From a virus (lineage: Duplodnaviria > Caudoviricetes): a stretch of 34,865 nt of DNA. The stretch is from IMG/VR virus record IMGVR_UViG_3300033094_000132, positions 1 through 34,865 of that record; one strand, 5' to 3'. How positions within the stretch are numbered: position 1 is the stretch's first letter; each line of letters starts with the position of its first letter. Positions 3,519 to 30,576 of this stretch are shown one piece after another. The notes beneath the pieces are model-generated. The model was given only the letters and a program-made list of their open reading frames with translations, had not been told where the DNA came from and searched no databases. Position numbers and translations under genes: made by a program.

Positions 3519-3521
3519 AAG

Positions 3522-3596: not shown

Positions 3597-3606
3597 CCTC
3601 ATTAAT

Positions 3607-3909: not shown

Positions 3910-3928
3910 GTTGTTGTGATTTGTTATA

Positions 3929-5189: not shown

Positions 5190-5607
5190 GAGTGATTTTT
5201 ATTTCAGACACCTCATGCTTATTCTCGGTTTTCTCTACCAAGTTGTTCAATCTTTGGGTTATGCTCGGGTTATAAATACCTGCCATACCCCCTCTGATTT
5301 GGTCTTGCCTGATTGTTTCCTTTATACGCGAACAGATGAGTGAAAATTCTTCGTATGCTCCATTTTGATTCTTAAAATAATCATGCACTGACCTTGCTAT
5401 TCCATTATTGAAACACCAAATAGAAAAGCCTTCCATCGTCAAAGGTGCTTCCTTTTCTCTTATTACTTGCTTTGCCATTCCTCCTACCCAGTCCTTCACC
5501 TTAATGGGGTTACTCTTTTCATATTCTACATATTGCAGAAATAAGTCAAGCATTATTTCGGGGGTATCTATTTTTCTTGGTCTTCCAACCTTATTGCTCT
5601 TTGCCAT
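5179..5607 (-). CDS. terS: Terminase small subunit, P22 gp3-like
   Basis: GRPRK, PLTMEGF and GIYNPSITQRL motifs; overlaps terL start. Confidence 0.85.
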   Translation of the reverse strand: MAKSNKVGRPRKIDTPEIMLDLFLQYVEYEKSNPIKVKDWVGGMAKQVIREKEAPLTMEGFSIWCFNNGIARSVHDYFKNQNGAYEEFSLICSRIKETIRQDQIRGGMAGIYNPSITQRLNNLVEKTENKHEVSEIKITRDR

Positions 5608-5608
5608 T

Positions 5609-6897: not shown

Positions 6898-7676
6898 TGG
6901 AATGGGTTATAATATATTGGTCTTGTCCCATGATAGTATTCATGAGTTATCTGTATTACCCTTTGGGTTACCTCTGAACTGTGTTTCTCCTTCCAAGACT
7001 GGTACTCTGTTTCTCCCTTGTCAATGTGGTCTATCTCAATGTGAGGCAAGAATACGTTCCACATCCCTGCAACTGTGGACCTATGACTTGCAAGGACATC
7101 ATCATAACCATATAGGCAAGGTTGGTAAAGGTAGCCTATTTTGTCCAACAATGCTGATGAGTACATTTGGCAAGTCCCTATAATGTGATGACACTTCTCA
7201 ACGATTATCCATCTTTGTCCTGCCATGTGTGGAATCATTAACAATTCACTTCTCCAATCAGGCAAGGCGTGATTCGGTTCTTCCCAACAATCTTTTCGTT
7301 TTAACCCAATAATCCCTATTCTTGGTTCACGTTCAATTGCCTCAACCATTTCCTTAACCCAAGAATCAGAATAGATTACAACATCATTATCCATCTTTAT
7401 GCAATACTGCCCAGGTACTCTGTACTTCCAAGCAAGATTAACCGCCTCGGCAGTTCCTATGTTGTGTTCATTGGTAATTACATTAATGTACCCATCATCT
7501 GCATATATTTTAAGGATGTCCTTTGTTGCTTGGCAAGAGTTGTTATCTACTACCCAAAAGTCATGGTTCTCAAAAATGTCTGTAATAAATATACTATCAA
7601 GGACTTGCTTTGTTAGTTCAGTCCTCTTATTTTCCTCCGTATCATGCACCGCCATTGCTATTAATACTTTGTCCAT
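6894..7676 (-). CDS. GT2-family (GT-A) glycosyltransferase
   Basis: VVDNNS, NIGTAEAVN, KMDNDV (DxD) and YGYDD motifs. Confidence 0.85.
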   Translation of the reverse strand: MDKVLIAMAVHDTEENKRTELTKQVLDSIFITDIFENHDFWVVDNNSCQATKDILKIYADDGYINVITNEHNIGTAEAVNLAWKYRVPGQYCIKMDNDVVIYSDSWVKEMVEAIEREPRIGIIGLKRKDCWEEPNHALPDWRSELLMIPHMAGQRWIIVEKCHHIIGTCQMYSSALLDKIGYLYQPCLYGYDDVLASHRSTVAGMWNVFLPHIEIDHIDKGETEYQSWKEKHSSEVTQRVIQITHEYYHGTRPIYYNPFQ

Positions 7677-7677
7677 T

Positions 7678-7797
7678 TTATTTATTTATAGTTCCACAAT
7701 GACCGCACTTGCTTTCCTTTGCCTTTGATTTGATGATTGTAATGGTGTACTTCTTGTGGCAATTTTTACACGTTACCCACTTTGCTTGGTATTTCAT
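7678..7797 (-). CDS. 39-aa zinc-ribbon protein
   Basis: MKYQAKWVTCKNCHKKY...KCGHCGTINK; ATGA overlap; fills a gap; below ORF-track cutoff. Confidence 0.7.
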   Translation of the reverse strand: MKYQAKWVTCKNCHKKYTITIIKSKAKESKCGHCGTINK

Positions 7798-8036
7798 ATT
7801 ACAAGTTTATCTATGTCTATGTTATGCTCTTTAAGTATTTCCCAAAACTTTTCATATACTAAATTTATTGCTTCATAAGCATCAAGGTCTTTTGCTTCTG
7901 CTTCATTCTTCAAACCCTTCTTTGTATTGTAAATAAATTCATGAATGGCACTGCATAACTCAGTAGACTGAACACATCTAAGATGCTCTATCTTATCATC
8001 GTAATCATCAAGGTTAAAGTGTAACTCTGCTTTCAT
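7794..8036 (-). CDS. Hypothetical protein
   Basis: 80-aa ORF with ATGA coupling at both ends. Confidence 0.75.
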   Translation of the reverse strand: MKAELHFNLDDYDDKIEHLRCVQSTELCSAIHEFIYNTKKGLKNEAEAKDLDAYEAINLVYEKFWEILKEHNIDIDKLVI

Positions 8037-9037
8037 ATTATTGATTTAAATACTTGACTTCTCAACTCGTTTACCTTAAGTAAGTTAAATTTCTCCCTGC
8101 ACCATTCACCATTAGCAAGACCCATCTCTTGTCTATAAATAGCATCTTTGACAACTTTTTTAATATTTTCAAACCATCCGCCTTGATGACCTACTGGTAT
8201 AATGTATGGGCATTCAGAATAAGGTTTAACATTAGATACTATAACGGGTGCGTTCTTTGTGGCTGCCTCCAATACTTTAAGGTTGGACTTCATTGAGTTG
8301 AACTTTGAATCTACCAAAGGAATCAAACAAGCATCTGCCTCATTATAAAATTTCATATACTCATCAACTGGTAACGCTTCCCGTATGTAACCATCAACCT
8401 TGAATGCACAAAGATAATCGTTAATCATCCTTCCCCATTCATTTGCTACTTGCTTGTCTTGACTATAACCGCAAAGTATGAATCTTGAGTTATTCCTTGT
8501 TATAACATCTGTTGCAACACGCTTCATTGGATTCTTTAGGATTGCAATGTCTTTGCCGTGAGTTATTGAACCTGCGTAAACAAATCGTACTCTATCGGAT
8601 TCAGTCTTGACATCTGTAAACTGGTCTTGCCCATAAGGCAATGCGTTTGGTATTACTATCCAATTCGAGTTTAGTTCATCAATATGGACCGCCAAATCAT
8701 TATTTGAGCAGATAACCAAGTCAGCTATCTTGATATGGTCTATAACCTTTTGAGTTGGGTATTTGCCATAAAGGATGTGCCACGGGTCAAGATGCCAATA
8801 GTCATCAATATCAACCACTAACTTGAATCCGTACTTTTCACGCAGTCTTACCAATTTATCAACCTCCATACCTGCAATGTATCGGTTAATGAAAACAATG
8901 TCATACCCCTTCTCAAGTTCTTCCTCGGTAAGTACATCGGTCATCATTGCGAAGTCTTTAGGAAGATAGATAATCGGATTGAATAACCTATGAAAAGATA
9001 CCCCTGAGTTTCTTTGTCCGACTGTGATTATTCTCAT
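8033..9037 (-). CDS. GT-B (GT4-like) glycosyltransferase
   Basis: DIDDYW, YAGSITH and FNSMKSNLKVLEA...VIVSNV motifs. Confidence 0.85.
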   Translation of the reverse strand: MRIITVGQRNSGVSFHRLFNPIIYLPKDFAMMTDVLTEEELEKGYDIVFINRYIAGMEVDKLVRLREKYGFKLVVDIDDYWHLDPWHILYGKYPTQKVIDHIKIADLVICSNNDLAVHIDELNSNWIVIPNALPYGQDQFTDVKTESDRVRFVYAGSITHGKDIAILKNPMKRVATDVITRNNSRFILCGYSQDKQVANEWGRMINDYLCAFKVDGYIREALPVDEYMKFYNEADACLIPLVDSKFNSMKSNLKVLEAATKNAPVIVSNVKPYSECPYIIPVGHQGGWFENIKKVVKDAIYRQEMGLANGEWCREKFNLLKVNELRSQVFKSII

Positions 9038-9330
9038 TGCTTATTTTTAAATGGTCTGCCTTTCTTCTTTGGTGGTTCTTGGATGGGTTGCTCAACGTCT
9101 ATCAACTTAGTTGCTTGGTATTCATCCCAGTAATTACTTAACCGCTTCATCATGTCGGCAACACAATTGGCACACCATGAAGTAAGGATAAACCCACCAT
9201 CTAAGTACTTTCTGTAAATCTGCTCATATCCCACCAAGATATGCAAGGGTAGGTTCTTCATAAACCCTGCCTTAACACACTCAAAGTTGTAGATATTTTC
9301 TTTTATAAACTTTTCATCTTCTTGTGTCAT
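9034..9330 (-). CDS. Hypothetical protein with CxxC
   Basis: 98-aa coupled ORF, WCANCV, basic KKKGRP tail. Confidence 0.75.
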   Translation of the reverse strand: MTQEDEKFIKENIYNFECVKAGFMKNLPLHILVGYEQIYRKYLDGGFILTSWCANCVADMMKRLSNYWDEYQATKLIDVEQPIQEPPKKKGRPFKNKQ

Positions 9331-9332
9331 AG

Positions 9333-9545
9333 TTATTGATTATAATTTTCGTTGTAGTATTGTTCTGCCCTACCCATATTTGGGTCAAAGTTTGTACTCA
9401 TTCCATCATAGACTGCTTTCATTATCTGCTCCTTCTCCATTGCTTTTGCTTCTTCAATAAATTCATTCATTATAACACTATCTTTCGTTATATAATTTGA
9501 TTCAATCAATCCATTTATGAACCATTGTAATGCAGTCTGTGCCAT
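9333..9545 (-). CDS. Hypothetical protein
   Basis: 70-aa ORF, AKAMEKEQI...AEQYYNE. Confidence 0.75.
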   Translation of the reverse strand: MAQTALQWFINGLIESNYITKDSVIMNEFIEEAKAMEKEQIMKAVYDGMSTNFDPNMGRAEQYYNENYNQ

Positions 9546-9602
9546 AGTTTATCTGTTTTGATTTTAAAGGTGATTTACTACGTTATTTGTTATTTAATTA
9601 AA

Positions 9603-9773
9603 CTAAAAGATATCAAACATTGCATCTCTTTTGCGTTCTTCAAGTTTCGCTTTTCTCTGTGCGTTATCACACATCTTGCAATATACCGCCATTCGGTCAG
9701 TCCTTGCAGTTGATTTGCTAAACTTTGCTTTCTCTTTGTAGACTTTACACTTTGGGCAGATTTTTCCTTCCAT
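9603..9773 (-). CDS. 56-aa zinc-finger protein
   Basis: MEGKICPKCKVYK...YCKMC...; starts 3 nt after the upstream stop; below ORF-track cutoff. Confidence 0.75.
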   Translation of the reverse strand: MEGKICPKCKVYKEKAKFSKSTARTDRMAVYCKMCDNAQRKAKLEERKRDAMFDIF

Positions 9774-9776
9774 GAT

Positions 9777-10004
9777 TTACTTTTTAAAGAATTTATTTTT
9801 AAAATCTTCGTCTGTTACTATTCCGCTATAATCAGCAAATTGAGATTGACATTCAGCACATTCTAAAAACTCCGGTAATTTATATTCCTTTTTACCAATC
9901 AATTCTATGTATTCAACTTCAATTATTGCAGTCCATTTATAATTGCAATTTTTACAATGTGCATGACTAATTAAATAATTAATCCCCGAATCCATCTTCC
10001 TCAT
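9777..10004 (-). CDS. Zinc-ribbon hypothetical protein
   Basis: CKNC...CAEC; start could be the second Met. Confidence 0.7.
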   Translation of the reverse strand: MRKMDSGINYLISHAHCKNCNYKWTAIIEVEYIELIGKKEYKLPEFLECAECQSQFADYSGIVTDEDFKNKFFKK

Positions 10005-10155
10005 TTTTTATTTTATATATTTCTAAACATGCCCATTGGATTAGTGCTGATAATATTTCCTCTTTTTTATCATGCTCTAAATCATGGTAGTCAGGATAAA
10101 TTTGGAATATTTTATGCTGAATTTTGCCTTCTTCGTTAATACTTAATGTACTCAT
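9979..10155 (-). CDS. 58-aa hypothetical protein
   Basis: MSTLSINEEGKIQHKIF...EDGFGD; fills the gap between two ORFs. Confidence 0.6.
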   Translation of the reverse strand: MSTLSINEEGKIQHKIFQIYPDYHDLEHDKKEEILSALIQWACLEIYKIKNEEDGFGD

Positions 10156-10158
10156 TGT

Positions 10159-10410
10159 TTATTTTTTAAAGAATATGTTATTTAATAAGTTCCTGAATAG
10201 TGGTGCAGATACACCTGAAACGAATGCCACCAAAACGCAATTGAGAACGATTGTAGGCAGTAGGTACAGAATAACTGCTACATACACAGACATGCACATA
10301 TTGCAATTGAATGGTTTAAAATTGACTTTCAAGCGTTCAGGCAGTCTTGCCATATCTATTATGTAAAAGACAGAGAAAAGTGAGGCAATAACAACTTTAA
10401 GTAGTAACAT
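10159..10410 (-). CDS. Small membrane protein with KPFNCxxC motif
   Basis: Hydrophobic segments flank KPFNCNMC. Confidence 0.7.
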   Translation of the reverse strand: MLLLKVVIASLFSVFYIIDMARLPERLKVNFKPFNCNMCMSVYVAVILYLLPTIVLNCVLVAFVSGVSAPLFRNLLNNIFFKK

Positions 10411-10912
10411 GGTTTTTGATTTTATATTTAAGAAGTGTTCGTGTTTTCTTAATCGTTTTCATTAAGGACCTATAAGGTATGCCAGTATCCCTTGAAAGGG
10501 ACATTATGTTTTGTCCATTCTCTGAGTATAAGCGGAAGATTTCAAGTTCATACCAATGCAGAATCTTTAGGGAGTTGTTTAGTTTAACCGCTATTTCATC
10601 TGCTTGGATGGTATCACTTGAATCAGGTGCATCATGCTTCTCGGTCCATTCGGTAAAGGTTCTCCTAAACTTGTTGAAGAAGGTTGACCTATCAGATTTT
10701 ATCATTGAAAGCATAGTGCGTACCAAGTAGAACTTTATAAACCCGTTTTGATACATTGACATAAACTTTACCTCATCCATCTCACAAAGAACCATAAACA
10801 TCTCCTGCCTCAAGTCATCCTGCAACTCTATTGGTTGCATCTTCTTGATGGCATTGTCTATATCCTTGTCGGTGTATAGACTTTGGATGATATCGTTCTT
10901 TGTTATTGCCAT
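10397..10912 (-). CDS. ECF/sigma70-like RNA polymerase sigma factor
   Basis: Region-2-like DDLRQEMF and region-4 HTH LHWYELEIFRLY...SLSRDTGIPYRSL. Confidence 0.75.
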   Translation of the reverse strand: MAITKNDIIQSLYTDKDIDNAIKKMQPIELQDDLRQEMFMVLCEMDEVKFMSMYQNGFIKFYLVRTMLSMIKSDRSTFFNKFRRTFTEWTEKHDAPDSSDTIQADEIAVKLNNSLKILHWYELEIFRLYSENGQNIMSLSRDTGIPYRSLMKTIKKTRTLLKYKIKNHVTT

Positions 10913-11208
10913 TCGTTTATCTCAGGGATTCCTTTGTTATCAGTTGCAAGGTAGCACAAACAACCTGCATTTTTTGCTCTATTGAGAAAAACTATTTGAT
11001 AATCACTTAATTTATCCGCAATAGTTTTAACCTCACAATAGACCGCCTTGCCAGTTGACTTATGGAATCCAATAATGTCAGCAACACCTCTCTCACCAAT
11101 AAACTTTCTGCCTGGGATAGACAGATTGTTGTTTCGCCAAACATAGCACCCAAGTCCTTCCAACTTGATTAATGCAAACTTTGTAATCATCCCTGCGGTT
11201 AAGTCCAT
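10903..11208 (-). CDS. VRR-NUC domain nuclease (resolvase-like)
   Basis: GVADI, CEVKT and LSDYQIVFL PD-(D/E)xK pattern. Confidence 0.85.
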   Translation of the reverse strand: MDLTAGMITKFALIKLEGLGCYVWRNNNLSIPGRKFIGERGVADIIGFHKSTGKAVYCEVKTIADKLSDYQIVFLNRAKNAGCLCYLATDNKGIPEINEWQ

Positions 11209-11969
11209 TATCCTCTATTTATCAGTTTAGTAAAGTATTCAGAAACCGCCATTCGGTAGCATTGATGCTCCATATAATCCTCATCCTTCATCCGATTCTT
11301 CACGTCTATCTTGTCTTGTCTGCTACCTTCAAACATTTTCTCATTCATAGCGGTCAGGACCTTCTCATAGGTTTCTGAAGGTGTGACAATGATGCTACCA
11401 CGTTTATGCAAGATATTAAACACATCCACTCCGAATACTATGTTATCCCATTGCCTGAACTTCTTGAAGCAATCAAAAGCAGTTTCTATCTTTTCATCAT
11501 CTGAAATAAATCTTGGATTCCACTTGCTTTCTTCCTTTGGCTTAATATCATTAAGTTTCTGCATACCATACCTTGCAAATGCCCTTAGAAGTCTGTGAAG
11601 GTATAATACTGAAAAGTTTTGATAGGTTTCTGCTTCCATATCAAGTTTACCTTTACTTGCCAAATCAAAAGCAAGGGTTAATTCACCTAACTTAATGTTA
11701 GGGTATTCCTCAACGATTGACTTATACATTACAGATAGTTCCTCTTTATTGGGTATCTTATCTCCTTTAATGCCAAGTTTATGCATACCCCTTATGAGTT
11801 CATCCACTACCAAAGCAATGCTGACAGTATTTAACTTTTCAGAAGTTCTTGCATATTTAAACCTTTCCAGGTCCAATGCCTCTGATTCGGTCAATCTCGG
11901 AGAAGTAGTCATGGTATTCGTTTCGTTTCTCATTATAGACGTCAAAGTTTGACTTAGTGCTTGTTCCAT
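11208..11969 (-). CDS. Replication-associated protein (possible helicase loader, lambda P position)
   Basis: 253-aa ORF immediately after the initiator; function inferred from position. Confidence 0.5.
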   Translation of the reverse strand: MEQALSQTLTSIMRNETNTMTTSPRLTESEALDLERFKYARTSEKLNTVSIALVVDELIRGMHKLGIKGDKIPNKEELSVMYKSIVEEYPNIKLGELTLAFDLASKGKLDMEAETYQNFSVLYLHRLLRAFARYGMQKLNDIKPKEESKWNPRFISDDEKIETAFDCFKKFRQWDNIVFGVDVFNILHKRGSIIVTPSETYEKVLTAMNEKMFEGSRQDKIDVKNRMKDEDYMEHQCYRMAVSEYFTKLINRG

Positions 11970-12615
11970 TTTTATTTTCTTTAAGTTTAAATAATCCTTT
12001 GTAATTGTTTGAGATACTTTGATTGATAACTTTTTTCGCAGTTTCTAAGTCGCCACCTGAAAGGTCTACCAAGTTGTTAATGGCAGTCTGTTCGGTTTTA
12101 GAACTTTTGAACTTGTTACCATGCTCAACTTTTTTATATTCCATCCATCCTTTCCAAACATCTTCCCAATCATCTGAAATAAACACTAACTCTTTTATTT
12201 GTATTAAATCTTTCTTTTGTATGGAATTAGTCTTTTGTATAATGGCACTTTCACCGAAGTCGGTAATTTCCGAAGTCGGTGTTTTCCGAACTCGGATATC
12301 TTGGTTCTCGGCAGGTAAGTCATATACTACATGATTCCATCCTACAAACCTACCAGTACCAAGGTCATGCATCTTTATTGATAAGATATAACCTTTGTTT
12401 TGCAATCCTTTAAATGCTCTGTCTATTGTGCCAGGTTTATCGGGTAGGTTGTTGTAGAGATTCTTTTTGTAAATAACCCAATCTGAAGGAAGTGATAATA
12501 AATAACTTAAAAGACCTTTCTCATCAAGTGACAAAGTCTTGGACTTTATCAACTCATTTGGCAGAGTTGTGAACCTTTCGGTTGACTTGCTCTTTACTAT
12601 TTGCCCAGTGTTCAT
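11857..12615 (-). CDS. Phage replication initiator/replisome organiser (N-terminal wHTH)
   Basis: FTTLPNELI..LSLDEKGLLSYLLSLPSDW N-terminus; W..WMEYKK C-terminal domain. Confidence 0.75.
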   Translation of the reverse strand: MNTGQIVKSKSTERFTTLPNELIKSKTLSLDEKGLLSYLLSLPSDWVIYKKNLYNNLPDKPGTIDRAFKGLQNKGYILSIKMHDLGTGRFVGWNHVVYDLPAENQDIRVRKTPTSEITDFGESAIIQKTNSIQKKDLIQIKELVFISDDWEDVWKGWMEYKKVEHGNKFKSSKTEQTAINNLVDLSGGDLETAKKVINQSISNNYKGLFKLKENKNGTSTKSNFDVYNEKRNEYHDYFSEIDRIRGIGPGKV

Positions 12616-12621
12616 AAAAAT

Positions 12622-12714
12622 AAAAAAGGGAAACCGAGTGTAGTATGTTTACCCGATTCCCCATTATTGTCTGTACTTACAAACAAGCATCTGCATACTA
12701 CCTCAAATGCTTGT
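12622..12714 (-). promoter_or_regulatory. Kissing-loop attenuator-like leader 2
   Basis: ACAAGCATTTG-AGGTAGTATG-CAGATGCTTGT then GGGGAATCGGGT-AAACATACTAC-ACTCGGTTTCCC-TTTTTT; loops pair GTAGTATG/CATACTAC. Confidence 0.75.
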
Positions 12715-12722
12715 CTACTTTG

Positions 12723-12730
12723 CGAAGATA
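12723..12730 (-). promoter_or_regulatory. Bacteroidota-type -7 box (TATCTTCG)
   Basis: One mismatch from TAnnTTTG, directly before leader 2. Confidence 0.55.
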
Positions 12731-12735
12731 CAAAA

Positions 12736-12984
12736 CTATTCACTTATTGCATCTTTTTTCTTTACTCGGACCGCATAGGTTTTGCCATCAAGTCTGCTAA
12801 TTACCTTCCTCCCAACCTGCCTCAAGTCTGAAATCTTATTAGGAGGATATCCCATGAAGTTGCAGACACACTTCCCAGACCGATAAGTAACCGCCTTTTT
12901 CTTCCTTTCTTGTATATCCTCAATGGAAAGGTCATAGACCAAGTACTCAACCGCATTCTCCAAATGATATGTTATGTCCTTCAT
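12736..12984 (-). CDS. Hypothetical basic protein (possible NUMOD1-like HTH)
   Basis: 82-aa ATGA-coupled ORF; VYDL...YRSGKCVCNFMG pattern. Domain call is weak. Confidence 0.65.
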   Translation of the reverse strand: MKDITYHLENAVEYLVYDLSIEDIQERKKKAVTYRSGKCVCNFMGYPPNKISDLRQVGRKVISRLDGKTYAVRVKKKDAISE

Positions 12985-13091
12985 TTAAACCTAATTTTGA
13001 GCATCAAAACGATAGATGCTAATGAATAAATAACAATTGCAACTGGTATGGCTACAAAGATGAAATAAAGCCATTCAAATAATATTTTCAT
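12981..13091 (-). CDS. 36-aa single-pass membrane peptide
   Basis: MKILFEWLYFIFVAIPVAIVIYSLASIVLMLKIRFK; ATGA overlaps at both ends. Confidence 0.75.
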   Translation of the reverse strand: MKILFEWLYFIFVAIPVAIVIYSLASIVLMLKIRFK

Positions 13092-13555
13092 ATATCCATT
13101 ATTAGTCGGTCTTGAGAGATTCCGTAGGTATCTCCATAACCAAAGTTTACAATATTCTCAGGCTTAAAGACTTCAGAACCTGGGAAAAACCCCTTTAACT
13201 CATAGGTAGGCATCTCACCAACCATTAAAACATAGTAAGCAGGTTTAAGGTAATTCTCTTTCCACTTACCAATCAATAGCATTCCGTGAGGTTTATTGGT
13301 TGTTTTAACATCTATGAATCCGATGTTATTAATTGCACAATCAAATGCCATAGGTTGCTCAATAGACATATCAGGGTAGATGTTTTTTATTTTACAAAAA
13401 GCAAACTCCCCACCAGTTCCTTCAAGGTTAATTTGTAGGTCATCCCCATTACCCATCTTGTATGATTTGGTACCTCTATCAATATTGGTCAGATGCCTTG
13501 CAAGTGCAATCTCTTGTACAATTACTTGCTCTTGATAATTAAGTGTTACTTTCAT
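13088..13555 (-). CDS. Putative PD-(D/E)xK-like nuclease-fold protein (155 aa)
   Basis: GEFAF, FD and IDVKTT motifs; start moved to ATG 13555 behind the AAATCACA motif. Confidence 0.6.
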   Translation of the reverse strand: MKVTLNYQEQVIVQEIALARHLTNIDRGTKSYKMGNGDDLQINLEGTGGEFAFCKIKNIYPDMSIEQPMAFDCAINNIGFIDVKTTNKPHGMLLIGKWKENYLKPAYYVLMVGEMPTYELKGFFPGSEVFKPENIVNFGYGDTYGISQDRLIMDI

Positions 13556-13573
13556 TGTGATTTGATTTAAAGT

Positions 13574-13596
13574 GGGTGAGGTGATTAACCCCACCC
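13574..13596 (-). other. Intergenic hairpin after the SSB gene
   Basis: GGGTGGGGT-TAATC-ACCTCACCC with no strong U tract; mRNA stabiliser or processing site. Confidence 0.55.
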
Positions 13597-13603
13597 GTTT
13601 AGA

Positions 13604-13870
13604 TTAAAATGGTACATCCCCGTAGTCATCGTTCTGTGCAGGTTTGCTTCCGCTTACTAAGAACTTGGCATTTCCTAAGATAGTACCCTTCTGCCCTGCT
13701 TCCCTTTCTTCCTTTGTGATGGATTCAACGATAAAACCATTGTTACCATACTGGTCTACTTCTTCCTTCAGGAACAATGTTGCGGACAAATACTGTCCTT
13801 TTTTACCCTTGTAGAGTCTTTTGGCATCAATTTTACTTACATCAATTGAAAGGCTGATTAACTTTTGCAT
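13604..13870 (-). CDS. Single-stranded DNA-binding protein (phage type)
   Basis: Short beta-rich protein with acidic DDYGDVPF C-terminus, near the annealing protein. Confidence 0.7.
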   Translation of the reverse strand: MQKLISLSIDVSKIDAKRLYKGKKGQYLSATLFLKEEVDQYGNNGFIVESITKEEREAGQKGTILGNAKFLVSGSKPAQNDDYGDVPF

Positions 13871-13876
13871 ATTTGT

Positions 13877-14308
13877 TTATTTACTGAGTTGAATTTTGAA
13901 TGTGGAAGATGCGGACTTTATTGATAGGTCGCCTTTGTGATAGGTCCTCTCTTTATCCTCAATCTCCTTTTGTTGTTCCTTTAACACCTTGATTTGTTCT
14001 TCAAGTTCGTTCCACCCTGGGAGGTCTGAGTAATCATACTTGATTGTAACCATCTCGCTAACTGATGCACCAAGTACCTCTGCCTTACCTTTTGGATGCT
14101 TTACAAGTTCTGCAAGAACATTCTCGGTAATTCGGATTTTTACCGACTTAGCAAGTTGTTCTATACTATTGAACTTGATTGCAACATCTAATGGGTCAAG
14201 CAGTCCTTCGTTTATCTGCTCTTGAATGCTATCGGCAAGAAGTTCAATGCCAAACTTAGTGGGTGCAATATCCCCCACCTTTAAATCATTTACTGCTAAT
14301 GAGTTCAT
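13877..14308 (-). CDS. Hypothetical protein of the recombination module
   Basis: 143-aa ORF with coiled coil, between SSAP and SSB. Confidence 0.7.
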   Translation of the reverse strand: MNSLAVNDLKVGDIAPTKFGIELLADSIQEQINEGLLDPLDVAIKFNSIEQLAKSVKIRITENVLAELVKHPKGKAEVLGASVSEMVTIKYDYSDLPGWNELEEQIKVLKEQQKEIEDKERTYHKGDLSIKSASSTFKIQLSK

Positions 14309-15008
14309 TCTTTTTAGTTTTAAGTGCTTCCTTTACAAATTGGTTAGTTTCAATCTTATGCTTATTGGCATCATATACCGCTTTCAAATCTGCAATAGTT
14401 TCAGACTTATTAATGGCAATCATTAGCTTTCCGATAGATAACTTTTCTGCTTCTGCATCTTCAATAATCTCTACTGCTTCCACTTCCATCTGAGGCAATG
14501 CTTCTACCATTGTCTGCAATGCCCCTACGGTTGCATTAGGGATTGATTCTGCCTCTGATTCATCCAAGACACCTAATCCCAAGAGGTCAAGTGTTGCCCT
14601 CCGTTTTGCCTTGGTTTCTGCCTTCATAATGGCATTAGCATAAGCCTCACCTTTAAGACCTTGGATGTTGACTGCCCCAAGTGATTCTGTACACCTACCA
14701 TCAGGAAGGGATGCCTTTGAGGTTACAATATAAACCCCTGCATCTGTATTGGTGTCACGGGAAGTAATCAAGTGAGATACTTTGTGGAGTTTGTTAAGTT
14801 GCTGGGTACCTGACCTTGTACAGTAAAGGACCTCTTTACCATTAAGTCTGAGCAAGTCAAAAGGCTTTGTAAATGGGTCAAGTCCCATTCTTTCGCAATA
14901 CCCGTTATAGTACCTTACTTTGTCGTTTGCCGACAACTTGCTCAAGTCCCCCTGAAGGATTAGCTGATTCGCAATTGATGTCTGTTGATTCTGATTCTGT
15001 TGATTCAT
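14286..15008 (-). CDS. Single-strand annealing recombinase (RecT/Sak-like)
   Basis: GLDPF and MKAETKAKRRA..LGLG..DESE motifs; next to SSB. Confidence 0.7.
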   Translation of the reverse strand: MNQQNQNQQTSIANQLILQGDLSKLSANDKVRYYNGYCERMGLDPFTKPFDLLRLNGKEVLYCTRSGTQQLNKLHKVSHLITSRDTNTDAGVYIVTSKASLPDGRCTESLGAVNIQGLKGEAYANAIMKAETKAKRRATLDLLGLGVLDESEAESIPNATVGALQTMVEALPQMEVEAVEIIEDAEAEKLSIGKLMIAINKSETIADLKAVYDANKHKIETNQFVKEALKTKKNELISSK

Positions 15009-15243
15009 TGTTTTGTGATTTGATTAAATATGGAAAAGGCTTTTCTATTCTGTGAGGTGTTGAATTCTTCATCTTAGATACTTGGGTTATGTATATCTCC
15101 CATTCTTTAACGCTTTTTAACCCATAAAAGTAATACCATTGATGTCTAATTCTTTCTATGCTTTCGTGATTCCTTAATGGGAATGCGGTTGCTCTAACTT
15201 CTCCCTTAACCTCCAAGATCATCTCTATTCTTTCATAGTACAT
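14905..15243 (-). CDS. Hypothetical protein
   Basis: 112-aa ORF; its tail overlaps the recombinase start. Confidence 0.65.
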   Translation of the reverse strand: MYYERIEMILEVKGEVRATAFPLRNHESIERIRHQWYYFYGLKSVKEWEIYITQVSKMKNSTPHRIEKPFPYLIKSQNNESTESESTDINCESANPSGGLEQVVGKRQSKVL

Positions 15244-15487
15244 AATCTTCCTGCTTTAGTTTTTCATCTGCATACTTTTCAATGCACTTCTGCTCTATGA
15301 GTTCATAAAGGTCTTGCTTATACTCAGGCAGGAAATGGAATGCCCAATACCCTGGGGAAGTAATTACATCAACCTTAACATCCCAAGAATCATCTACAAT
15401 ATTTACAGATGCATAAACAGAAATACTAATGTCAATTGTTGAGTTAAACCATTCTTTGGGTAACTTAAGAAAAATAGAAGTAGTCAT
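15233..15487 (-). CDS. Hypothetical early protein
   Basis: 84-aa ORF with AAATCACATG start context. Confidence 0.75.
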   Translation of the reverse strand: MTTSIFLKLPKEWFNSTIDISISVYASVNIVDDSWDVKVDVITSPGYWAFHFLPEYKQDLYELIEQKCIEKYADEKLKQEDYVL

Positions 15488-15508
15488 GTGATTTGATTTG
15501 ATTTAAAG

Positions 15509-15679
15509 TTAAGAAATTTTGTCTAATGTATAAAACAATTTCTGCATAGTTTCAAGCCTAACCTTGCCCGTTTTCTCTGCTCGGTTAATGGTTGCAAGGC
15601 TGATGCCTGAGATAGATGCAAGTTTCTCTTGGGTCACATCCTTTCCCCTTCTAATCTTTCTGAGTTCTTCTTTTGTCAT
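15509..15679 (-). CDS. XRE/Cro-family HTH regulator (56 aa)
   Basis: LRKIRRGKDVTQEKLASISGISLATINRAEKTG is a canonical HTH_3 pattern; missed by the ORF track. Confidence 0.9.
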   Translation of the reverse strand: MTKEELRKIRRGKDVTQEKLASISGISLATINRAEKTGKVRLETMQKLFYTLDKIS

Positions 15680-15690
15680 TGTTTGGTTTT

Positions 15691-15933
15691 TTATTCGTTA
15701 TTTAAAATAATTACGCATTCATCGCAGCCTTTACCTTCGCACTCGGGACACGGTTGCTCTATTGCATCAGGCATGATTACTGACCTCACCCATCCCATTG
15801 CTCGGAACTGCTCAACACTTGTGCTAAGATAGTTGACCGCTTCGCCTGAGTATATCATGGCATCTATTAACTCTCCAAGTAACTTGTGCCGTTCATAAGT
15901 GTTTAGGTCGCCCCATTTTGGTAGTTGGTTCAT
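15691..15933 (-). CDS. Hypothetical early protein with CxxCxGxGCxxC
   Basis: C-terminal CPECEGKGCDEC. Confidence 0.75.
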   Translation of the reverse strand: MNQLPKWGDLNTYERHKLLGELIDAMIYSGEAVNYLSTSVEQFRAMGWVRSVIMPDAIEQPCPECEGKGCDECVIILNNE

Positions 15934-15944
15934 GTGATTTAATT

Positions 15945-16019
15945 TTAAAGGTTATCTGCAAAGCAGAATGCAAGACAAAGAATGATGATGATGATGGTTT
16001 GAACAGTTGACTTTTTCAT
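15945..16019 (-). CDS. 24-aa hydrophobic peptide, first early gene
   Basis: MKKSTVQTIIIIILCLAFCFADNL; AAATCACATG start context 22 nt after the promoter box. Confidence 0.65.
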   Translation of the reverse strand: MKKSTVQTIIIIILCLAFCFADNL

Positions 16020-16041
16020 GTGATTTGTTTTGATTATTTAC

Positions 16042-16049
16042 CAAAAATA
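16042..16049 (-). promoter_or_regulatory. Main early promoter -7 box (TATTTTTG)
   Basis: TAnnTTTG match with upstream TTG and an AT-rich tract, after the late-operon terminator. Confidence 0.7.
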
Positions 16050-16114
16050 AACTTTTTTTTCATATAAACAATACTTTTTTAATCTTTTTAAAAATATTTT
16101 TTTGCAGTTATCCC

Positions 16115-16150
16115 AAAACAAAAACCCCCAATGTAGATACATCAGGGGTT
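16115..16150 (-). terminator. Intrinsic terminator ending the late/lysis operon
   Basis: AACCCCTGATGT-ATCT-ACATTGGGGGTT then TTTGTTTT. Confidence 0.85.
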
Positions 16151-16192
16151 CAAATCACATTAAAACTTTAAAAATCAACAGTCTATGTCATT
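16115..16192 (-). ncRNA. Candidate late sRNA antisense to early-gene start regions
   Basis: CTATTTAATA at 16201-16192, then unpaired ATGTGATTTG (16160-16151), then the terminator. Confidence 0.55.
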
Positions 16193-16420
16193 ATTAAATA
16201 GCGTTTCGTGCATGGATTTTACCGAAAATTCCAACATCTCAAAACAAAGTTTCTTTAGTTCTTGGACCTTTTCCACTTCCTCCTTGGTCATAGGGTTGGC
16301 AGATTCAAGCATAGTAAGTACCTCAACGGAGGCAGATATGTAGTCGGGGTAACCATACCCTTCCGCTTCCTCTACATATTCAACCTCATCCGATTCTCCT
16401 AAAACAAGGTCCTGCTCCAT
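16175..16420 (-). CDS. Acidic hypothetical protein
   Basis: 81-aa ORF, last gene before the terminator. Confidence 0.75.
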   Translation of the reverse strand: MEQDLVLGESDEVEYVEEAEGYGYPDYISASVEVLTMLESANPMTKEEVEKVQELKKLCFEMLEFSVKSMHETLFNNDIDC

Positions 16421-16422
16421 AG

Positions 16423-17127
16423 TTAAAGGATTTTGATTGTTCTTACAAAAGTATATCCTCCAGTATGATTTCTCCTTCCCTTTAACACTGCTGATATTTT
16501 AGTTGCAGTAACATTCAATTTATTTGCTGCATCATAAATACCTTCATAAGTATTTACAAGTAAACCATCTTTGTATGCTTCAATAATCCCTTTAAACGGG
16601 AAACTGTCTTTGCCAGTTTTACCTTTAGATGGGTTGTTAACTTTCATTCTTATAGATGCAGCAATGTTTTGCTCAGGAGTATTTTTTCTGTTCTTATTCG
16701 CTAAACTTATTTTCCTTCTTGCTTCTTCAGAATTTTTTATTCCTAACCTAAATTTCCTTAATTTTTCCTTTTGTTCTTCGCTTAATATTTTCTGTTTCGC
16801 CTTTTCGCTTAACTTCTTTTTATGAGATTCTGTGAATATATACCCATTTAATCCATCTCCACCATCTGTCATGTTGCATAAAGTACCAGTTCTTTTATCT
16901 ATTCTCCCGTACAGTTTTATAAACTCAATCTCCTTTTCCTTTGCAAATTCAACAGATACTTCATCTGCAATTATCTCAACAAAATAATCTGATTTTGCAG
17001 TAATCTTTTTCCATAGTTCACTTCTTCTTGCTCTTTCATTTGCTCTTTTATATTCAGCATCAGAACCTATTCCAATATAAAAAGGTTGATTTTTGTCTAA
17101 TCTTATATGTCTGTAAACGTATGCCAT
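16423..17127 (-). mobile_element. Free-standing GIY-YIG-like homing endonuclease with NUMOD3/NUMOD1 domains
   Basis: YVYRH...FYIGIG, NMTDGGDG, (S/T)EE..KKIS-type repeats and a C-terminal NUMOD1-like HTH. Confidence 0.8.
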
Positions 17128-18098
17128 TAGGATATTTGTCCTTTATCTATTGTGTAATTTCTAACATTGAAATCTTTGCCATCAACATCCACAATAGCAA
17201 AACCATGATTCCATTTATTTATTGGAAGATAAGCAGGATGGAGTTCACACAAACAACCTAAAGACCATGTCTTTACTACCCCTCCATTCATATCTCTTTC
17301 AACATGAGAACTGGTGCAATGGTTATGACCTTGCATAGCAGACACCTTGCCCCTTAGGAATAACCCCCTTGCAATGTTTACTGGACTGAATACCGAACCA
17401 CCGAACTCATGCCCGTGTATAATATTCAAATCACCTGCTTTCATTATACGCTTGTCCTTGATTATCTCAATTCCTTCTGCCCTTGCTTTAAGTATATTCT
17501 CAATCTCAAATTCCTCTACCCCGACCAGTTCATGTGCTTTCATCCAAAGAAAATGCTCATACCTTTCGCAATGGTTTCCCATCTTGTAATAGATTTTAGC
17601 ACTGAAAGTCTTTTTAAGAATCTCCATAAAGTCTTTAAAGATTGCCAACTCACTTGCTATTGACCTTTTCTTGGGGTCTTTCATAAACCTACTCAACCCA
17701 AAAAAGTCAAGTGTATCACCATTCAAAAGTATGGCATCGGGTTTTTCTCCTTTCGCAAAATCAAAAGCACAAGTAAGACTTTCAATGTTATGATAAGGGA
17801 TGTGTATGTCGGAAAGAACCAACAACCGCTTCGCTTTCAGTTCATAAGGTTCGTAAATTGCCTCATCGGATTCAGGTAAGTTGTACGGGTTCTTGGGTCT
17901 GTCTGGTATCACTTTATTCGTTTTATATCTTTGTTCTTTTCCTTGCTTACTCTCAATTGCTCTCAACTTACCTCTTGCGTGTTCAAGTCCGCTAAATAGT
18001 AAAGGATTTTCAATATACATTAAACGTGCAAGTTTTAAGGTGGGCATATCCCATCCGTACTTTTCACGATACTCTCTTGCTATGTCTACCTTTTTCAT
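17127..18098 (-). CDS. Calcineurin-like metallophosphoesterase
   Basis: SDIH, GD..D, GNH, HGH and GHNH motifs. Confidence 0.9.
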   Translation of the reverse strand: MKKVDIAREYREKYGWDMPTLKLARLMYIENPLLFSGLEHARGKLRAIESKQGKEQRYKTNKVIPDRPKNPYNLPESDEAIYEPYELKAKRLLVLSDIHIPYHNIESLTCAFDFAKGEKPDAILLNGDTLDFFGLSRFMKDPKKRSIASELAIFKDFMEILKKTFSAKIYYKMGNHCERYEHFLWMKAHELVGVEEFEIENILKARAEGIEIIKDKRIMKAGDLNIIHGHEFGGSVFSPVNIARGLFLRGKVSAMQGHNHCTSSHVERDMNGGVVKTWSLGCLCELHPAYLPINKWNHGFAIVDVDGKDFNVRNYTIDKGQIS

Positions 18099-18538
18099 TT
18101 AAAGTATAGGTTTGCTTCCGCTTCCCTTCGCCTTGTAAGACCTGCAAGAACCTTGCCACCTGCTTTGTTCCACTTCAAGAACTCTGTTTTTATGCTTGGA
18201 TCATTAGGATTGGAATTGACTTTTTTAAGTAGTGTTGACTTTTGTAGGTTTGCAATACCGCAGTTATATGCAAATGATGTTAATGCACCGAATTGGTTCT
18301 CACTAACTTTTGACGTTACTAATTTAGCAACTTTTGCAGAAAAGTCATTTGCTATTATCTCAAACAAATCCTCTGCTTTCTGTTGAGTTATTGCATTTCC
18401 TGCAACAACTGGTGTACCATCCTCAAAGAAGGTGTTGCCGTATCCAATAGTCCACTTTTTAGCAGAGCATTGGTATGCTTTCAACTTACATCCTTCAAAC
18501 TCCTTAATCAAGTCTGCACCTGCTTTGTTTAGTTTCAT
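18095..18538 (-). CDS. Endolysin, GH24 phage lysozyme
   Basis: FEG..L.AY.C....WTIGYG and GLTRRREAE motifs. Confidence 0.95.
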   Translation of the reverse strand: MKLNKAGADLIKEFEGCKLKAYQCSAKKWTIGYGNTFFEDGTPVVAGNAITQQKAEDLFEIIANDFSAKVAKLVTSKVSENQFGALTSFAYNCGIANLQKSTLLKKVNSNPNDPSIKTEFLKWNKAGGKVLAGLTRRREAEANLYFK

Positions 18539-18984
18539 ATTCTATCTCTTAAGTAACGTATAAGTAACCAAACTCCAATCAATGCAAATATCCATAATTG
18601 CCTTCTTTTTGCCTTACCTTTCCAAGTTATTGAATCATTACTTAAACGGGTGCTATCGGCTTGTAATAGCCTCACACGAGCATTATCAACAATGAAGGAC
18701 TTTAATGTATCGTGAATGGTAGTAGACTTGATTATGTCCCTTGTTTTCCATTTCGTGATGTAGGTTGTATCGTTTACGATTTCAGAAAAAGTTTCTGTAT
18801 CTATTCGCACCAATGTATCAACCTCGATAAGTGTATCGGACTTGGTGATGAAGGTAGTATCATTTGCACACCATCCCCCTTTAACCACAACCTTTGCAAC
18901 CTGCTCAAGTTTGTCTTGGTCACGCAAAACTTGTTTAACTGGGTTGCAGCTAACAAAAAGTAAAATCAAAAATATGTACCTCAT
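18535..18984 (-). CDS. Candidate unimolecular spanin
   Basis: Lipoprotein signal (LLFVS-C) plus C-terminal TM helix, within the lysis cassette. Confidence 0.65.
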   Translation of the reverse strand: MRYIFLILLFVSCNPVKQVLRDQDKLEQVAKVVVKGGWCANDTTFITKSDTLIEVDTLVRIDTETFSEIVNDTTYITKWKTRDIIKSTTIHDTLKSFIVDNARVRLLQADSTRLSNDSITWKGKAKRRQLWIFALIGVWLLIRYLRDRI

Positions 18985-19166
18985 TTCTTAAATATTTTTT
19001 CAGCAGATGAGAACCCAAGTGCTGATGATACTATGAATGTAACCGCAAAGATTGAGGCATCATTAGGCTTGGCAATCATAGTGGCACAAAGTGACAAAGT
19101 GCCAATAATGGCACAAAGTCGCTTCATGCTCAATCTATTGCTATCTTCCGTAAAGAATTGCCTCAT
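18981..19166 (-). CDS. Candidate holin
   Basis: 61 aa, two hydrophobic helices, basic C-terminus, upstream of lysin. Confidence 0.6.
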   Translation of the reverse strand: MRQFFTEDSNRLSMKRLCAIIGTLSLCATMIAKPNDASIFAVTFIVSSALGFSSAEKIFKK

Positions 19167-19321
19167 CCTTTTATTTCTTTATACATACGATAAGCATTAT
19201 AGACTATCGTTGAGATTCCTGCTAAAATAGCAACGACTACACCGACCTCGGAGATGGCAATATCTGCCCACACCTTTATCAGTATAGTCGCTGCACACAT
19301 TCCAATAGATTTGCTATCCAT
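19163..19321 (-). CDS. Small membrane protein (holin/antiholin candidate, 52 aa)
   Basis: Start moved to ATG 19321; VGVVVAILAGISTIVY helix. Confidence 0.6.
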   Translation of the reverse strand: MDSKSIGMCAATILIKVWADIAISEVGVVVAILAGISTIVYNAYRMYKEIKG

Positions 19322-19445
19322 TCTCGTTTTTCTCTTTTTGGAGTTCTTCGCCAATCTTAGCGTTAGTTTCTTGGAGTTGCTTTTGAAGGTACTCAATCTG
19401 AGCAAGGATGTCGTAGGCTTGTGCCTTCAGTTCTACAAGTGTCAT
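19314..19445 (-). CDS. 43-aa coiled-coil protein
   Basis: MTLVELKAQAYDILAQIEYLQKQLQETNAKI...; fills a gap; below cutoff. Confidence 0.75.
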   Translation of the reverse strand: MTLVELKAQAYDILAQIEYLQKQLQETNAKIGEELQKEKNENG

Positions 19446-19469
19446 AGTATATATTTTAAGGTAAATTTA

Positions 19470-19748
19470 CTAAATTATTGTCAAATTCAGCTTTCCCGCC
19501 ACCCAATCCCATGCGAATTCATCTTGCTCCCATGATTGATAATCTTCTCCGACCATGTCAAGATTTCCGCTTGTTACAAGTTCGCCAGGTGATTCTACCC
19601 CTTCTGCATCTACAACTTTTGTAGACAATGAATAATAGAACCTTGAACTAACGCCCAATGTTAGTTGGATGCCATAAGCATCTAAAAACTCTGCTACTTT
19701 TACTTCGCCATTTACCCATACATTGACGGGAGAGATTTGTTTCGCCAT
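19470..19748 (-). CDS. Fibre-associated small protein, paralogue B
   Basis: I.P...W..G, G.L...G.DY..W and W.W.A.KLNLTII shared with 19751..20032. Confidence 0.75.
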   Translation of the reverse strand: MAKQISPVNVWVNGEVKVAEFLDAYGIQLTLGVSSRFYYSLSTKVVDAEGVESPGELVTSGNLDMVGEDYQSWEQDEFAWDWVAGKLNLTII

Positions 19749-19750
19749 TT

Positions 19751-20032
19751 TTATATAATTGTTAGGTTTAACTTACTTGCTGCCCATTGATATATCCATG
19801 CGTTTGCATCAACTTCTGCATCCCATTGCTCATAGTCTGCACCATTAATCGCAAGTTGACCAATAATTAATGTTTGAGAATTTAATTGTTCATCAACAAT
19901 AATTTCTTCAATTAATTGATATTGAAATGTTGCTGAATTAATAAGATTATCTCCTGTTGAATAAAGACTAAAAACATTTGCTTGATGTTCTGCCCCTTTA
20001 AACCATGTTGTAATTGGTTGTATTTGTGCCAT
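19751..20032 (-). CDS. Fibre-associated small protein, paralogue A
   Basis: Shares the motifs of paralogue B (19470..19748). Confidence 0.75.
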   Translation of the reverse strand: MAQIQPITTWFKGAEHQANVFSLYSTGDNLINSATFQYQLIEEIIVDEQLNSQTLIIGQLAINGADYEQWDAEVDANAWIYQWAASKLNLTII

Positions 20033-25316: not shown

Positions 25317-25955
25317 TTAAGTATATTGGAATTTATACCCTTTAACAATTTTGTTATTTTTTAGACCTCTCATAACAGAATGCCTACTCATATTTAAATC
25401 TTCAGCACATAATGACTTTGCTATATATCTTCCAATATAATTATCATTTTTATACACATCAAACTCTTTGCATCCTTTATTTTGAGATATTTTTATTTTA
25501 GAATAATCTGAATGCTTTTTACCAAACAAAGGATGATTTTCTCCCTGAAGAGCATCAGACATTTTTCTTCTTGCATCTTCAGTATGAGTTCTACCTTTAG
25601 TCAAAGAACCATATGTATTACCCAAATTTCTTATAGATATACTTTTTCTTCTTTCTTGACTAAATTTTATATTTAATGTTCCTTCTCCACCATCTGTCAT
25701 ATTTGCTAATATTCCAGTGTTTGTATTTTTCCTTCCATATAGACTTATCAACTCCTTTTCTTTTTCACAAGCCTCTTCCCAAGTTAAATCATCCATGAAT
25801 ATTTCTACTTCATAACTACTATTATTGACTATATTATTCCAAATCGGATTTCTTTTTCTTGATGAATATGCTCTGTAATATCTTTTATCCGTACCTATTC
25901 CTATGTAGAAAGGTTCGTTTTTATCTGTCCTAATATGTCTATAAACGTATGCCAT
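25317..25955 (-). mobile_element. Free-standing GIY-YIG-like homing endonuclease 2 (212 aa)
   Basis: True start ATG 25955 (MAYVYRHIR); FYIGIG, NMTDGGEG and NUMOD3 GENHPLFGKKHS motifs. Confidence 0.8.
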
Positions 25956-30569: not shown

Positions 30570-30576
30570 TAAATAG
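30570..30576 (-). promoter_or_regulatory. Candidate late promoter motif CTATTTA
   Basis: Intergenic, 15 nt before the scaffold ATG. Confidence 0.5.

Follow-up and report, generated by a model that had tools for sequence, protein, structure and literature searches.

The DNA analysed here, called the window throughout, is a virus record of 34,865 bases whose long reading frames lie on the minus strand. Family scans recognised a terminase, a portal, the capsid region, a tape measure, an endolysin and a metallophosphoesterase and, in addition, two homing endonucleases, a replication initiator, glycosyltransferases and an XRE-type HTH protein. An integrase was recognised neither among 52 window proteins compared with PHROGs nor among 47 compared with Pfam, and the family scans of the phage proteins returned no antirepressor, no site-specific recombinase, no RNA chaperone and no match to RegA or RegB. 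The best bacterial matches of the recombinase-like protein belong to Flavipsychrobacter and other Chitinophagaceae, and the early promoter contains a Bacteroidota-type TANNTTTG element. Judged from these two sequence features, the host of the phage is likely a Chitinophagaceae-type bacterium. The capsid protein had no relative among cultured phages and the recombinase only three partial matches there, and there is therefore no ready model phage. The features on which the following analysis is based are listed in Table 1.

Table 1. Features of the window connected with the early start codons and the late terminator
Feature	Position	Strand	Remarks
Host-type (Bacteroidota -7) early-promoter element TATTTTTG	16042..16049	-	consensus TANNTTTG (PMC6847099)
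Tag on first early gene (15945-16019, 24 aa)	16019..16026	-	overlaps the ATG
Tag on 80-aa early gene (15691-15933)	15933..15940	-	complement of at least 7 nt in clade orthologues, 11/11
XRE/Cro-type HTH gene in the early operon	15509..15679	-	from family scans; carries no tag
Tag on 84-aa early gene (15233-15487)	15487..15494	-	complement of at least 7 nt in clade orthologues, 11/11
Tag on probable single-strand annealing recombinase gene (14286-15008)	15014..15021	-	clade orthologues 11/11
Tag on 155-aa early gene (13088-13555)	13556..13563	-	orthologues with complement 6/7
Tag on isolated 100-aa gene (3607-3909)	3915..3922	-	sixth coding-strand copy of AAATCACA
Last late gene, 81 aa	16175..16420	-	no family match; stop 26 nt before hairpin core
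Terminator hairpin of the late operon	16122..16151	-	followed by U tract to about 16115
Main seed UUUUAAUGUGAUUUG, antisense to the early start tag	16151..16165	-	core TGTGATT
Second, alternative pairing register (UUUAAA part)	16164..16178	-	complement of CTTTAAA, which precedes some tags
Candidate antisense RNA, about 77 nt	16115..16191	-	if made from the internal late promoter; putative 5' end
CTATTTA, putative late-promoter element	16195..16201	-	inside last codons of 81-aa gene
CTATTTA before scaffold gene	30570..30576	-	22 nt upstream
CTATTTA before other structural genes	28341, 24205, 3161	-	motif search
ECF-like sigma factor gene	10397..10912	-	presumed reader of CTATTTA

The promoter consensus element of Bacteroidota is described as TANNTTTG (PMC6847099). 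A sigma-70 promoter scan of the window stayed at chance level; the model used does not cover Bacteroidota promoters. Upstream of all three host-type promoter elements of the window lies an A/T stretch centred on AAATATTT (minus strand, 16080-16105, 3965-3990 and 3530-3570). This stretch is kept in relatives and is, rather than the start tag AAATCACA described below, a candidate for an XRE operator or an UP element.

Three glycosyltransferase-like genes and a methyltransferase are located between the sigma gene and the terminase genes (5609-9037), a cluster with a possible role in DNA or virion modification. Two related homing endonuclease genes are found among 16423-17127, 25317-25955 and 25957-27954, in the lysis block and 3' of the portal gene, the one in the lysis block being absent from most relatives. 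The 665-aa portal has an HTH-like stretch near residues 513-557. A structured RNA occupies 3417-3517 on the minus strand between the terminase region and a 225-aa gene and was found by motif search in 11 of 40 genomes. Its host-type element TATTTTTG lies at 3529-3522. Two of its hairpins, the first and the terminator-like last one, have loops that change together as complements (z -6.2), which suggests a kissing-loop or switch RNA; Rfam has no family for the RNA at 3420-3515.

Early start tags and the late terminator

Studying the start regions of the window confirms what the first-pass annotation had described, one motif recurring at six start codons. The octamer AAATCACA has seven copies in the window, six on the minus strand and one on the plus strand, and all six coding-strand copies lie 0-5 nt from an ATG. 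The count itself is marginal, as shuffles gave a mean of 3.44 copies and reached seven in 5 out of 100 cases. The signal is carried by the placement at starts, compared with which 27 out of 260 other 8-mers of the same composition fall in start windows; the nominal probability of 1e-6 for this placement is optimistic, the motif having been picked after being seen. Tagged starts make up 5 of 16 in the early block versus 1 of 37 elsewhere (Fisher p 0.007), and the exact tag is missing from 11 of the 16 early genes. All tags are A/C-rich and without G. The product of the tagged gene 14286-15008 matches Rad52_Rad22 with an E-value of 0.004, below the cut-off. The isolated gene 3909, whose tag sits 12 kb from the junction of late terminator and early operon, possesses a host-type promoter element of its own (TATATTTG, 3936-3929).

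The sole reverse copy of AAATCACA (plus strand, 16152-16159) lies within the 26 nt that separate the stop of the last late gene from the terminator, the stem of which (16151-16122) is the strongest terminator within bases 1-20000. Thus a single opposite copy adjoins the late-operon terminator, as had been claimed, and the pairing lengths given earlier are likewise correct. Exact complements to the seed measure 10 nt at 16019 (14 of 15 with one mismatch), 11 nt at 15487, 9 nt at 15933, 10 nt at both 15008 and 13555, and 9 nt at 3909, and at three tagged starts the pairing extends to the AU of the AUG. When 54 starts are ordered by predicted pairing including opening costs, the tagged ones take ranks 1, 2, 3, 5, 17 and 20, a ranking that is partly circular because the tag itself is defined by complementarity. 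The recombinase start (15008) is the strongest predicted target of the candidate RNA, and two of the six targets are predicted to bind modestly (-7.5 and -6.5 kcal/mol). In the predicted fold of the RNA of the window the seed lies partly in a weak 5' helix (mean unpaired 0.35-0.63). With respect to starts matched by 8-mers, the seed belongs genome-wide to the top 0.04% of sequence windows, tied with a T-rich coding window, and this ranking was for that reason given no weight. Rfam gave no match at gathering score in the window and none for the element. Public RNA data comprise four runs, all as assembled contigs, and one RNA run contains 0.53 of the words. In run X1 the phage or close relatives are present and one contig covers 16075-16403; such contigs give no strand, ends or level and speak neither for nor against the RNA, and the low summed depth across the element likewise carries no weight.

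The end of the 81-aa gene is overlapped by CTATTTAATA (16201-16192), which includes the heptamer CTATTTA. The same heptamer is found upstream of four structural genes of the window, 12-22 nt from the ATG. Three of these structural-gene sites are conserved in 11/11 genomes of the clade of the window and one in 10/11, and at the junction CTATTTA stands 51-54 nt before the hairpin in 11/11. Here the heptamer always uses the Leu codon CTA, which accounts for 74 of the 827 Leu codons in the window, while the codon after CTA occurs in six forms with its first A always kept. With CTA kept while the codon behind it varies, it is apparently the DNA that is constrained, the sequences being related and not independent events. 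The late motif which had been noticed before structural genes and near the junction is therefore a conserved one. Since one ATG lies 12 nt from the motif, transcription would start about 10 nt past the first CTATTTA base, near 16191, and would yield an RNA of about 77 nt. If the internal late promoter is not used, 16115..16191 would instead be the 3'-terminal part of the late lysis mRNA.

In 12/12 clade genomes versus 3/20 others a motif resembling a promoter is present 30-80 nt upstream of the hairpin, and outside the clade the seed may act as part of the 3' terminus of the late mRNA or of a processed piece. Because the motif occurs in only 3/20 non-clade genomes, "RNA ending at the late terminator" is the safer wording for the whole family, not "independent sRNA". 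Of the original proposal of an sRNA or 3'-UTR fragment, the seed and its target tags are supported by the co-variation reported below, whereas the motif of a putative separate sRNA promoter is regular within the clade and present in few genomes outside it.

The gene at 10397-10912 probably encodes an ECF-type sigma factor. Its product matches TIGR02937 with an E-value of 0.002, which is under the curated cut-off, and 26 of 34 homologues match at E <= 0.05. The top Foldseek rows are ECF sigma factors, with a best E-value of 0.003 and none below 0.001, and several of the homologues are annotated in their sources as ECF-type sigma factor. A sequence search with the sigma alignment against solved structures gave nothing relevant. 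The phage sigma factor which the first-pass annotation had postulated thus has a probable counterpart in an ECF-like gene, by computational matches below the curated cut-off. An RNA-guided sigma system of the dCas12f-sigmaE kind was also weighed and set aside, because the family scans gave no Cas12f/TnpB match.

Conservation and co-variation in related phages

Scans of viral contigs for close relatives yielded 238 loci. They contain 51 distinct junctions behind the 81-aa gene, 38 of which have TGTGATT just before the hairpin. CTATTTA is also present in all 38, and the other 13, which form a sister group, are without either motif. These 13 junctions provide a natural control, as they share the lysis genes, and they are followed by 1.7 copies of AATCAC per next 3 kb versus 6.8. 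In an alignment of 39 junctions, selected by CTATTTA, TGTGATT is invariant (39/39) and unpaired in the consensus fold while the flanks vary. The consensus consists of one hairpin and an unpaired 5' part, and three of the ten pairs of the hairpin show changes on both sides.

Orthologues of three tagged genes keep a complement of at least 7 nt in 11/11 clade genomes, compared with 2/11 for orthologues of the XRE gene. The capsid gene also reaches 7 nt in 9/11, apparently via A/T runs, so that 7 nt alone is a weak criterion. Two subtypes of seed and leader can be distinguished. In one of them the UUUAAA of the second register is replaced by UGUGUUU; this seed accompanies AATCAC..AAACAC leaders (1.48 vs 0.18 per locus), as the UUUAAA seed accompanies TTTAAA..AATCAC leaders (1.55 vs 0.33 per locus). 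The two subtypes represent essentially one phylogenetic contrast.

Mosaic phages (G017, G023, G038 and the sister-group loci L085-L137) have the lysis genes and the 81-aa gene in common with the window. They do not have its capsid, recombinase and sigma genes, and their junction seed is different and weak; in G017 and G023 another G/U-rich element is found before a different terminator. The terminator loops TTTCTAC or TTTCCAC recur at junction and other terminators of distant phages and are steadier than the stems.

Distant relatives were studied in 39 related genomes together with the window, and in 31 of them and the window a terminator could be placed behind the lysis or tail block and ahead of the early promoter. 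The junction seeds vary widely and, by eye, each mirrors the early leaders of its own genome, often including the AUG. For 18 representatives every 32-nt seed was scored against the first 12 starts of every genome, with row and column means removed. The excess for the own genome was reached in 0 of 200,000 permutations, both by energy and by exact length. All lineages enter this test as independent ones, although those of G000/G001/G004, G011/G039 and G017/G023 are related. The co-variation is kept without gene 1 or genes 1-3 (p 2e-5 each, the floor of the test). It is absent for the last 12 late starts (p 0.93/0.48), for gene interiors (p 0.44/0.2) and for a window 38 nt further upstream (0.16/0.18). 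The first-pass annotation had named co-variation of seed and start motif in relatives as a check, and this co-variation proves to be strong, confined to early starts and not dependent on the adjacent gene.

In total 32 of the 40 genomes were kept and 8 were left out of the matrix; 18 served as representatives and 12 entered the strict test. This strict test uses a rule blind to complementarity, which called a junction in 27/40 genomes, 26 of them coinciding with the picked junctions, and for the 12 genomes with junctions called in this way the co-variation has a p of 4e-5. For three of the 18 representatives (G015, G029, G035) the match count was known when they were chosen; two of these, G015 and G029, also came up independently with the RNA model. 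Low- and high-GC subsets both keep the co-variation. A covariance model built from the clade only gave 10 weak matches in distant genomes, all of them on such junctions by their coordinates. Start errors of the simple gene caller in the relatives should dilute the signal. Among the eight genomes left out, the junction of G027 was missed by the terminator finder and has on inspection a matching seed, G018 has a weak match, and in G014 no terminator was found before the early promoter. G021, G022 and G025 have another layout, G025 with a rule-called terminator without an evident seed, and G034 and G037 show no junction in the stretch examined.

Exact complements of at least 8 nt were found at 68/216 own early starts, 549/3672 foreign early starts and 16/216 own late starts. 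Complement coverage peaks at -13 to +3 relative to the start, and CAU is present in 13/18 seeds versus 4.6 expected. The G+T content is 0.72 before the 32 junction hairpins compared with 0.54 before 97 other intergenic terminators. The signal is not uniform. In 8/32 genomes the seed was equalled by more than 5 of its 100 shuffles, and five of 32 seeds (G017, G020, G036, G038, G039) have a z weaker than -1.5 versus shuffles. The own genome is the top match for only 8/18 seeds by energy and 9/18 by exact length, in part because tags are common to near relatives. The seeds of G029-G032 also find matches in the second half of the genome (z -2.0 to -3.9). Sequences before other terminators give a weak own-genome signal (p 0.05-0.08 by energy, 0.008-0.047 by length), probably in part because some of them are second elements of the same kind.

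Some other terminator regions of the relatives deserve mention. Six genomes (G002, G004, G005, G007, G009, G010) possess a second unit, reaching from CTATCTA to a terminator, between the protease and scaffold genes (e.g. L325:2667-2740). This unit, absent from the window, has in its middle a U run followed by CAU, complementary to ATG-AAA starts, and is a candidate for a second anti-start RNA. In G011, G012, G013, G019 and G039 a terminator with a G/U-rich 5' flank is located at the protease-scaffold site. tRNA-like sequences lie by a terminator with a G/U-rich 5' flank in G021 (7850-8050) and G025 (17570-17990).

Proposed mechanism and alternative readings

The tags, the single mirror copy, the conservation and the co-variation specific to early starts represent a real element. 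Its function has to be read from sequence, and we consider it likely that a late RNA, probably about 77 nt long here and simply a late 3' UTR in many relatives, pairs across early start codons and blocks translation. In this proposal late synthesis, pairing in trans and repression are the parts which we infer. The early operon and gene 3909 each have a host-type promoter element upstream, which would drive them, and their leaders present AAAUCACA at or beside the AUG. The ECF-like sigma factor would then start late transcription at CTATTTA, including the site 53 nt before the terminator hairpin, and initiation at this junction site would give an RNA of roughly 77 nt; where the junction CTATTTA is missing, this seed would be supplied by the long late mRNA or by a 3' fragment processed from it. 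The G/U-rich seed would pair over 9-14 nt with about -13 to +3 of the tagged mRNAs, a step which the co-variation supports. Initiation in Bacteroidota is described as tuned by mRNA structure and by adenines at -3, -6, -12 and -13, with A-rich leaders on whose unstructured state it depends (PMC6847099). Because -13 to +3 is the region of these determinants, the proposed pairing would affect initiation and, in terms of the same description (PMC6847099), may keep the 30S subunit off the tagged starts. Early products such as the recombinase would fall while untagged late genes would still be translated, and new early genes could enter the regulon by gaining a tag.

The pairing could also be real and serve another purpose, either the exclusion of a later-arriving kin phage or the activation or stabilisation of tagged mRNAs. 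Phage antisense RNAs with roles in immunity or exclusion are described, namely C4 (PMC5320573) and STnc6030 (PMC12197685), and the tags differ among lineages like immunity determinants. However, pure exclusion would favour the loss of tags by escape, and orthologous starts keep the tag in 11/11; in addition no integrase was found in the family scans, and the pairing covers the region that is described as needing openness in Bacteroidota (PMC6847099). We therefore regard another purpose as unlikely.

Very unlikely is a safeguard acting in cis only, in which a transcript reading through the terminator would bring its seed, by folding, to the start of the first early gene some 125 nt further on, and cassette duplication would have left the other tags as side effects. 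The first gene has indeed the longest match in the window (14/15), and for a close relative there is a metatranscriptome contig that continues about 40 nt beyond the terminator, although contigs may be DNA. Against this stands that the co-variation is unchanged without gene 1 or genes 1-3, and that in 4/18 phages the first called gene is without a 7-nt match while later genes have 10-12 nt. Moreover, the isolated gene 3909 is tagged 12 kb away, and the best predicted binding is that of the recombinase start.

The first-pass annotation had offered as its alternative that the motif is a DNA operator for the XRE protein, and the same could be said for another DNA-binding protein. An XRE/Cro-type gene is part of the early operon, the reverse copy lies about 110 bp upstream of the early promoter, and protein and site could co-vary among lineages. 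Yet the motif is asymmetric and not palindromic, uses one strand in 6/7 copies and is fixed to the start codons of operon-internal genes. The complement of AUG within the reverse copy of 13/18 phages is something an operator does not need, and many matching phages are without a tblastn match to the XRE protein, some having other small DNA-binding-like genes. On these sequence grounds the operator is disfavoured and has, in our opinion, very little probability.

A similarly low probability is assigned to a mirror of composition or mutation, where A/C-rich leaders and U/G-rich 3' UTRs match by chance or as idle template-switch copies. The marginal raw count of AAATCACA would agree with it, as would the A-rich leaders described for Bacteroidota (PMC6847099), the weak signal at other terminators and the five of 32 seeds which do not beat shuffles. 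But in the same genomes no signal is seen at late starts or gene interiors, GC-matched subsets keep it, the G+T excess distinguishes junctions from other terminators, and the seed core is invariant (39/39) between variable flanks.

Least probable of all is that the reverse copy serves as leader to a small divergent gene or to a decoy RNA from the plus strand, or that it marks where a promoter segment capable of inversion ends: a plus-strand ORF of 52 aa opens at 16185 and 16013-16027 forms an inverted repeat with 16151-16165 around the early promoter, but an opposite-strand TANNTTTG lies within 125 nt in only 2/32 genomes, the antisense frame ranges from 1 to 130 aa across genomes, terminator and early promoter keep the same orientation in the 61 junctions compared, and the family scans gave no site-specific recombinase.

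Known systems and significance

As is general for trans-acting sRNAs, the element combines a conserved seed with complementarity to several initiation regions, co-variation and an intrinsic 3' terminator. The C4 RNA of P1/P7 is described as a trans-acting phage RNA of about 77 nt which partly occludes ribosome-binding sites and whose variable part sets the specificity (PMC5320573). The candidate RNA is also short, proposed to act in trans and aimed at ribosome-binding regions. C4, however, has three stem-loops, is cut by RNase P and serves lysogenic immunity (PMC5320573), whereas the candidate RNA has one terminator hairpin, a linear seed, a putative late promoter and six or more dispersed, predicted early targets. 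The C4 covariance model had no match up to E 5 in 15900-16400. Membership in the C4 family was rejected, as there is no Rfam match, there are no three stem-loops with a'/b' loops, and the proteins scanned include no integrase or antirepressor that would point to temperate immunity.

In T4 the RegB endoribonuclease and the RegA repressor are reported to bring about a post-transcriptional shut-off which eases the early-to-late transition, RegA binding about 30 A/U-rich starts (PMC3014915, PMC1702504). Here as well a class of the phage's own mRNAs would be shut off via a feature of the initiation region. RegA and RegB are proteins, in contrast to the proposed system, in which the specificity would lie in an RNA seed co-varying with the tag.

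In anatomy the nearest published counterpart is the SAS repeat of cluster K mycobacteriophages, which we take as a lead and not as a test. It is described as an asymmetric repeat that stands, always in the same direction, a few bases before non-structural starts, while four genomes each have one copy of opposite direction that is not at a start; its function is left open in the accessible part of that study, where an RNA partner is mentioned as possible (PMC3203893). The arrangement of copies in one orientation before starts with a single reverse copy is that of the window. The sequences are unrelated and the host phylum differs, the SAS being a 13-bp GGGATAGGAGCCC with a Shine-Dalgarno core (PMC3203893) while the tags of the window are A/C-rich and without G. 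In the 40.8 kb of phage Anaya (JF704106) examined, we found 16 forward copies and 1 reverse copy of the SAS. The reverse copy (L398:39871-39883) lies in the loop of a long predicted plus-strand hairpin in the gap between genes 96 and 97, beside a second strong hairpin, and, unlike that of the window, is not before a U-tract terminator. According to this prediction, the gene 96-97 gap is a candidate for an anti-SAS RNA.

Cis-encoded antisense RNAs which repress phage genes are described for P22 (sar), lambda (OOP and aQ) and PAK_P4as15, and the other phage RNAs in the accessible part of the same review act on one overlapping gene, an antirepressor or host genes (PMC12197685). The cis-encoded RNAs repress phage genes by base pairing and shape development. 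They overlap one target on the opposite strand, whereas the candidate RNA is on the same strand as its many targets, which share a tag. The cis-encoded antisense class was rejected for this element, since RNA and targets lie on the same strand without overlap.

Small RNAs derived from 3' UTRs, such as CpxQ and DapZ, have their seed in the 3' UTR, share the terminator with the mRNA and arise from an internal promoter or by processing. The phage element resembles them in the seed, the shared terminator and the options for its origin. CpxQ- and DapZ-type sRNAs are Hfq-dependent and act on host genes, in contrast to the phage element, which would be aimed at the phage's own early regulon. To our knowledge the phylum Bacteroidota lacks Hfq.

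For a phage RNA complementary to many early starts of its own genome, the open-access literature gave nothing relevant. The translational early-to-late shut-off of T4 acts via the proteins RegA and RegB; an RNA in this role with a self-written, lineage-specific tag was absent from the open-access results as well. A wider reading, to which we give even chances, is that small Bacteroidota phages possess a programmable RNA clock, in which private start-codon barcodes are read by an anti-barcode in late 3' ends that silences the early regulon without a repressor protein, and which also explains the repeats of cluster K. If this is true, a newly acquired gene could be enrolled simply by gaining the tag, and the same logic would cover the start-associated repeats of cluster K with their one reverse copy. 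The puzzle of the SAS, which has one reverse copy there too (PMC3203893), becomes testable in this way, and the co-variation supplies natural compensatory pairs of seed and tag. A short cassette of seed plus terminator could serve as a compact multi-gene silencer for Bacteroidota. For the biology of these phages, the proposed system would illustrate the joint regulation of a group of start sites that have no Shine-Dalgarno signals.
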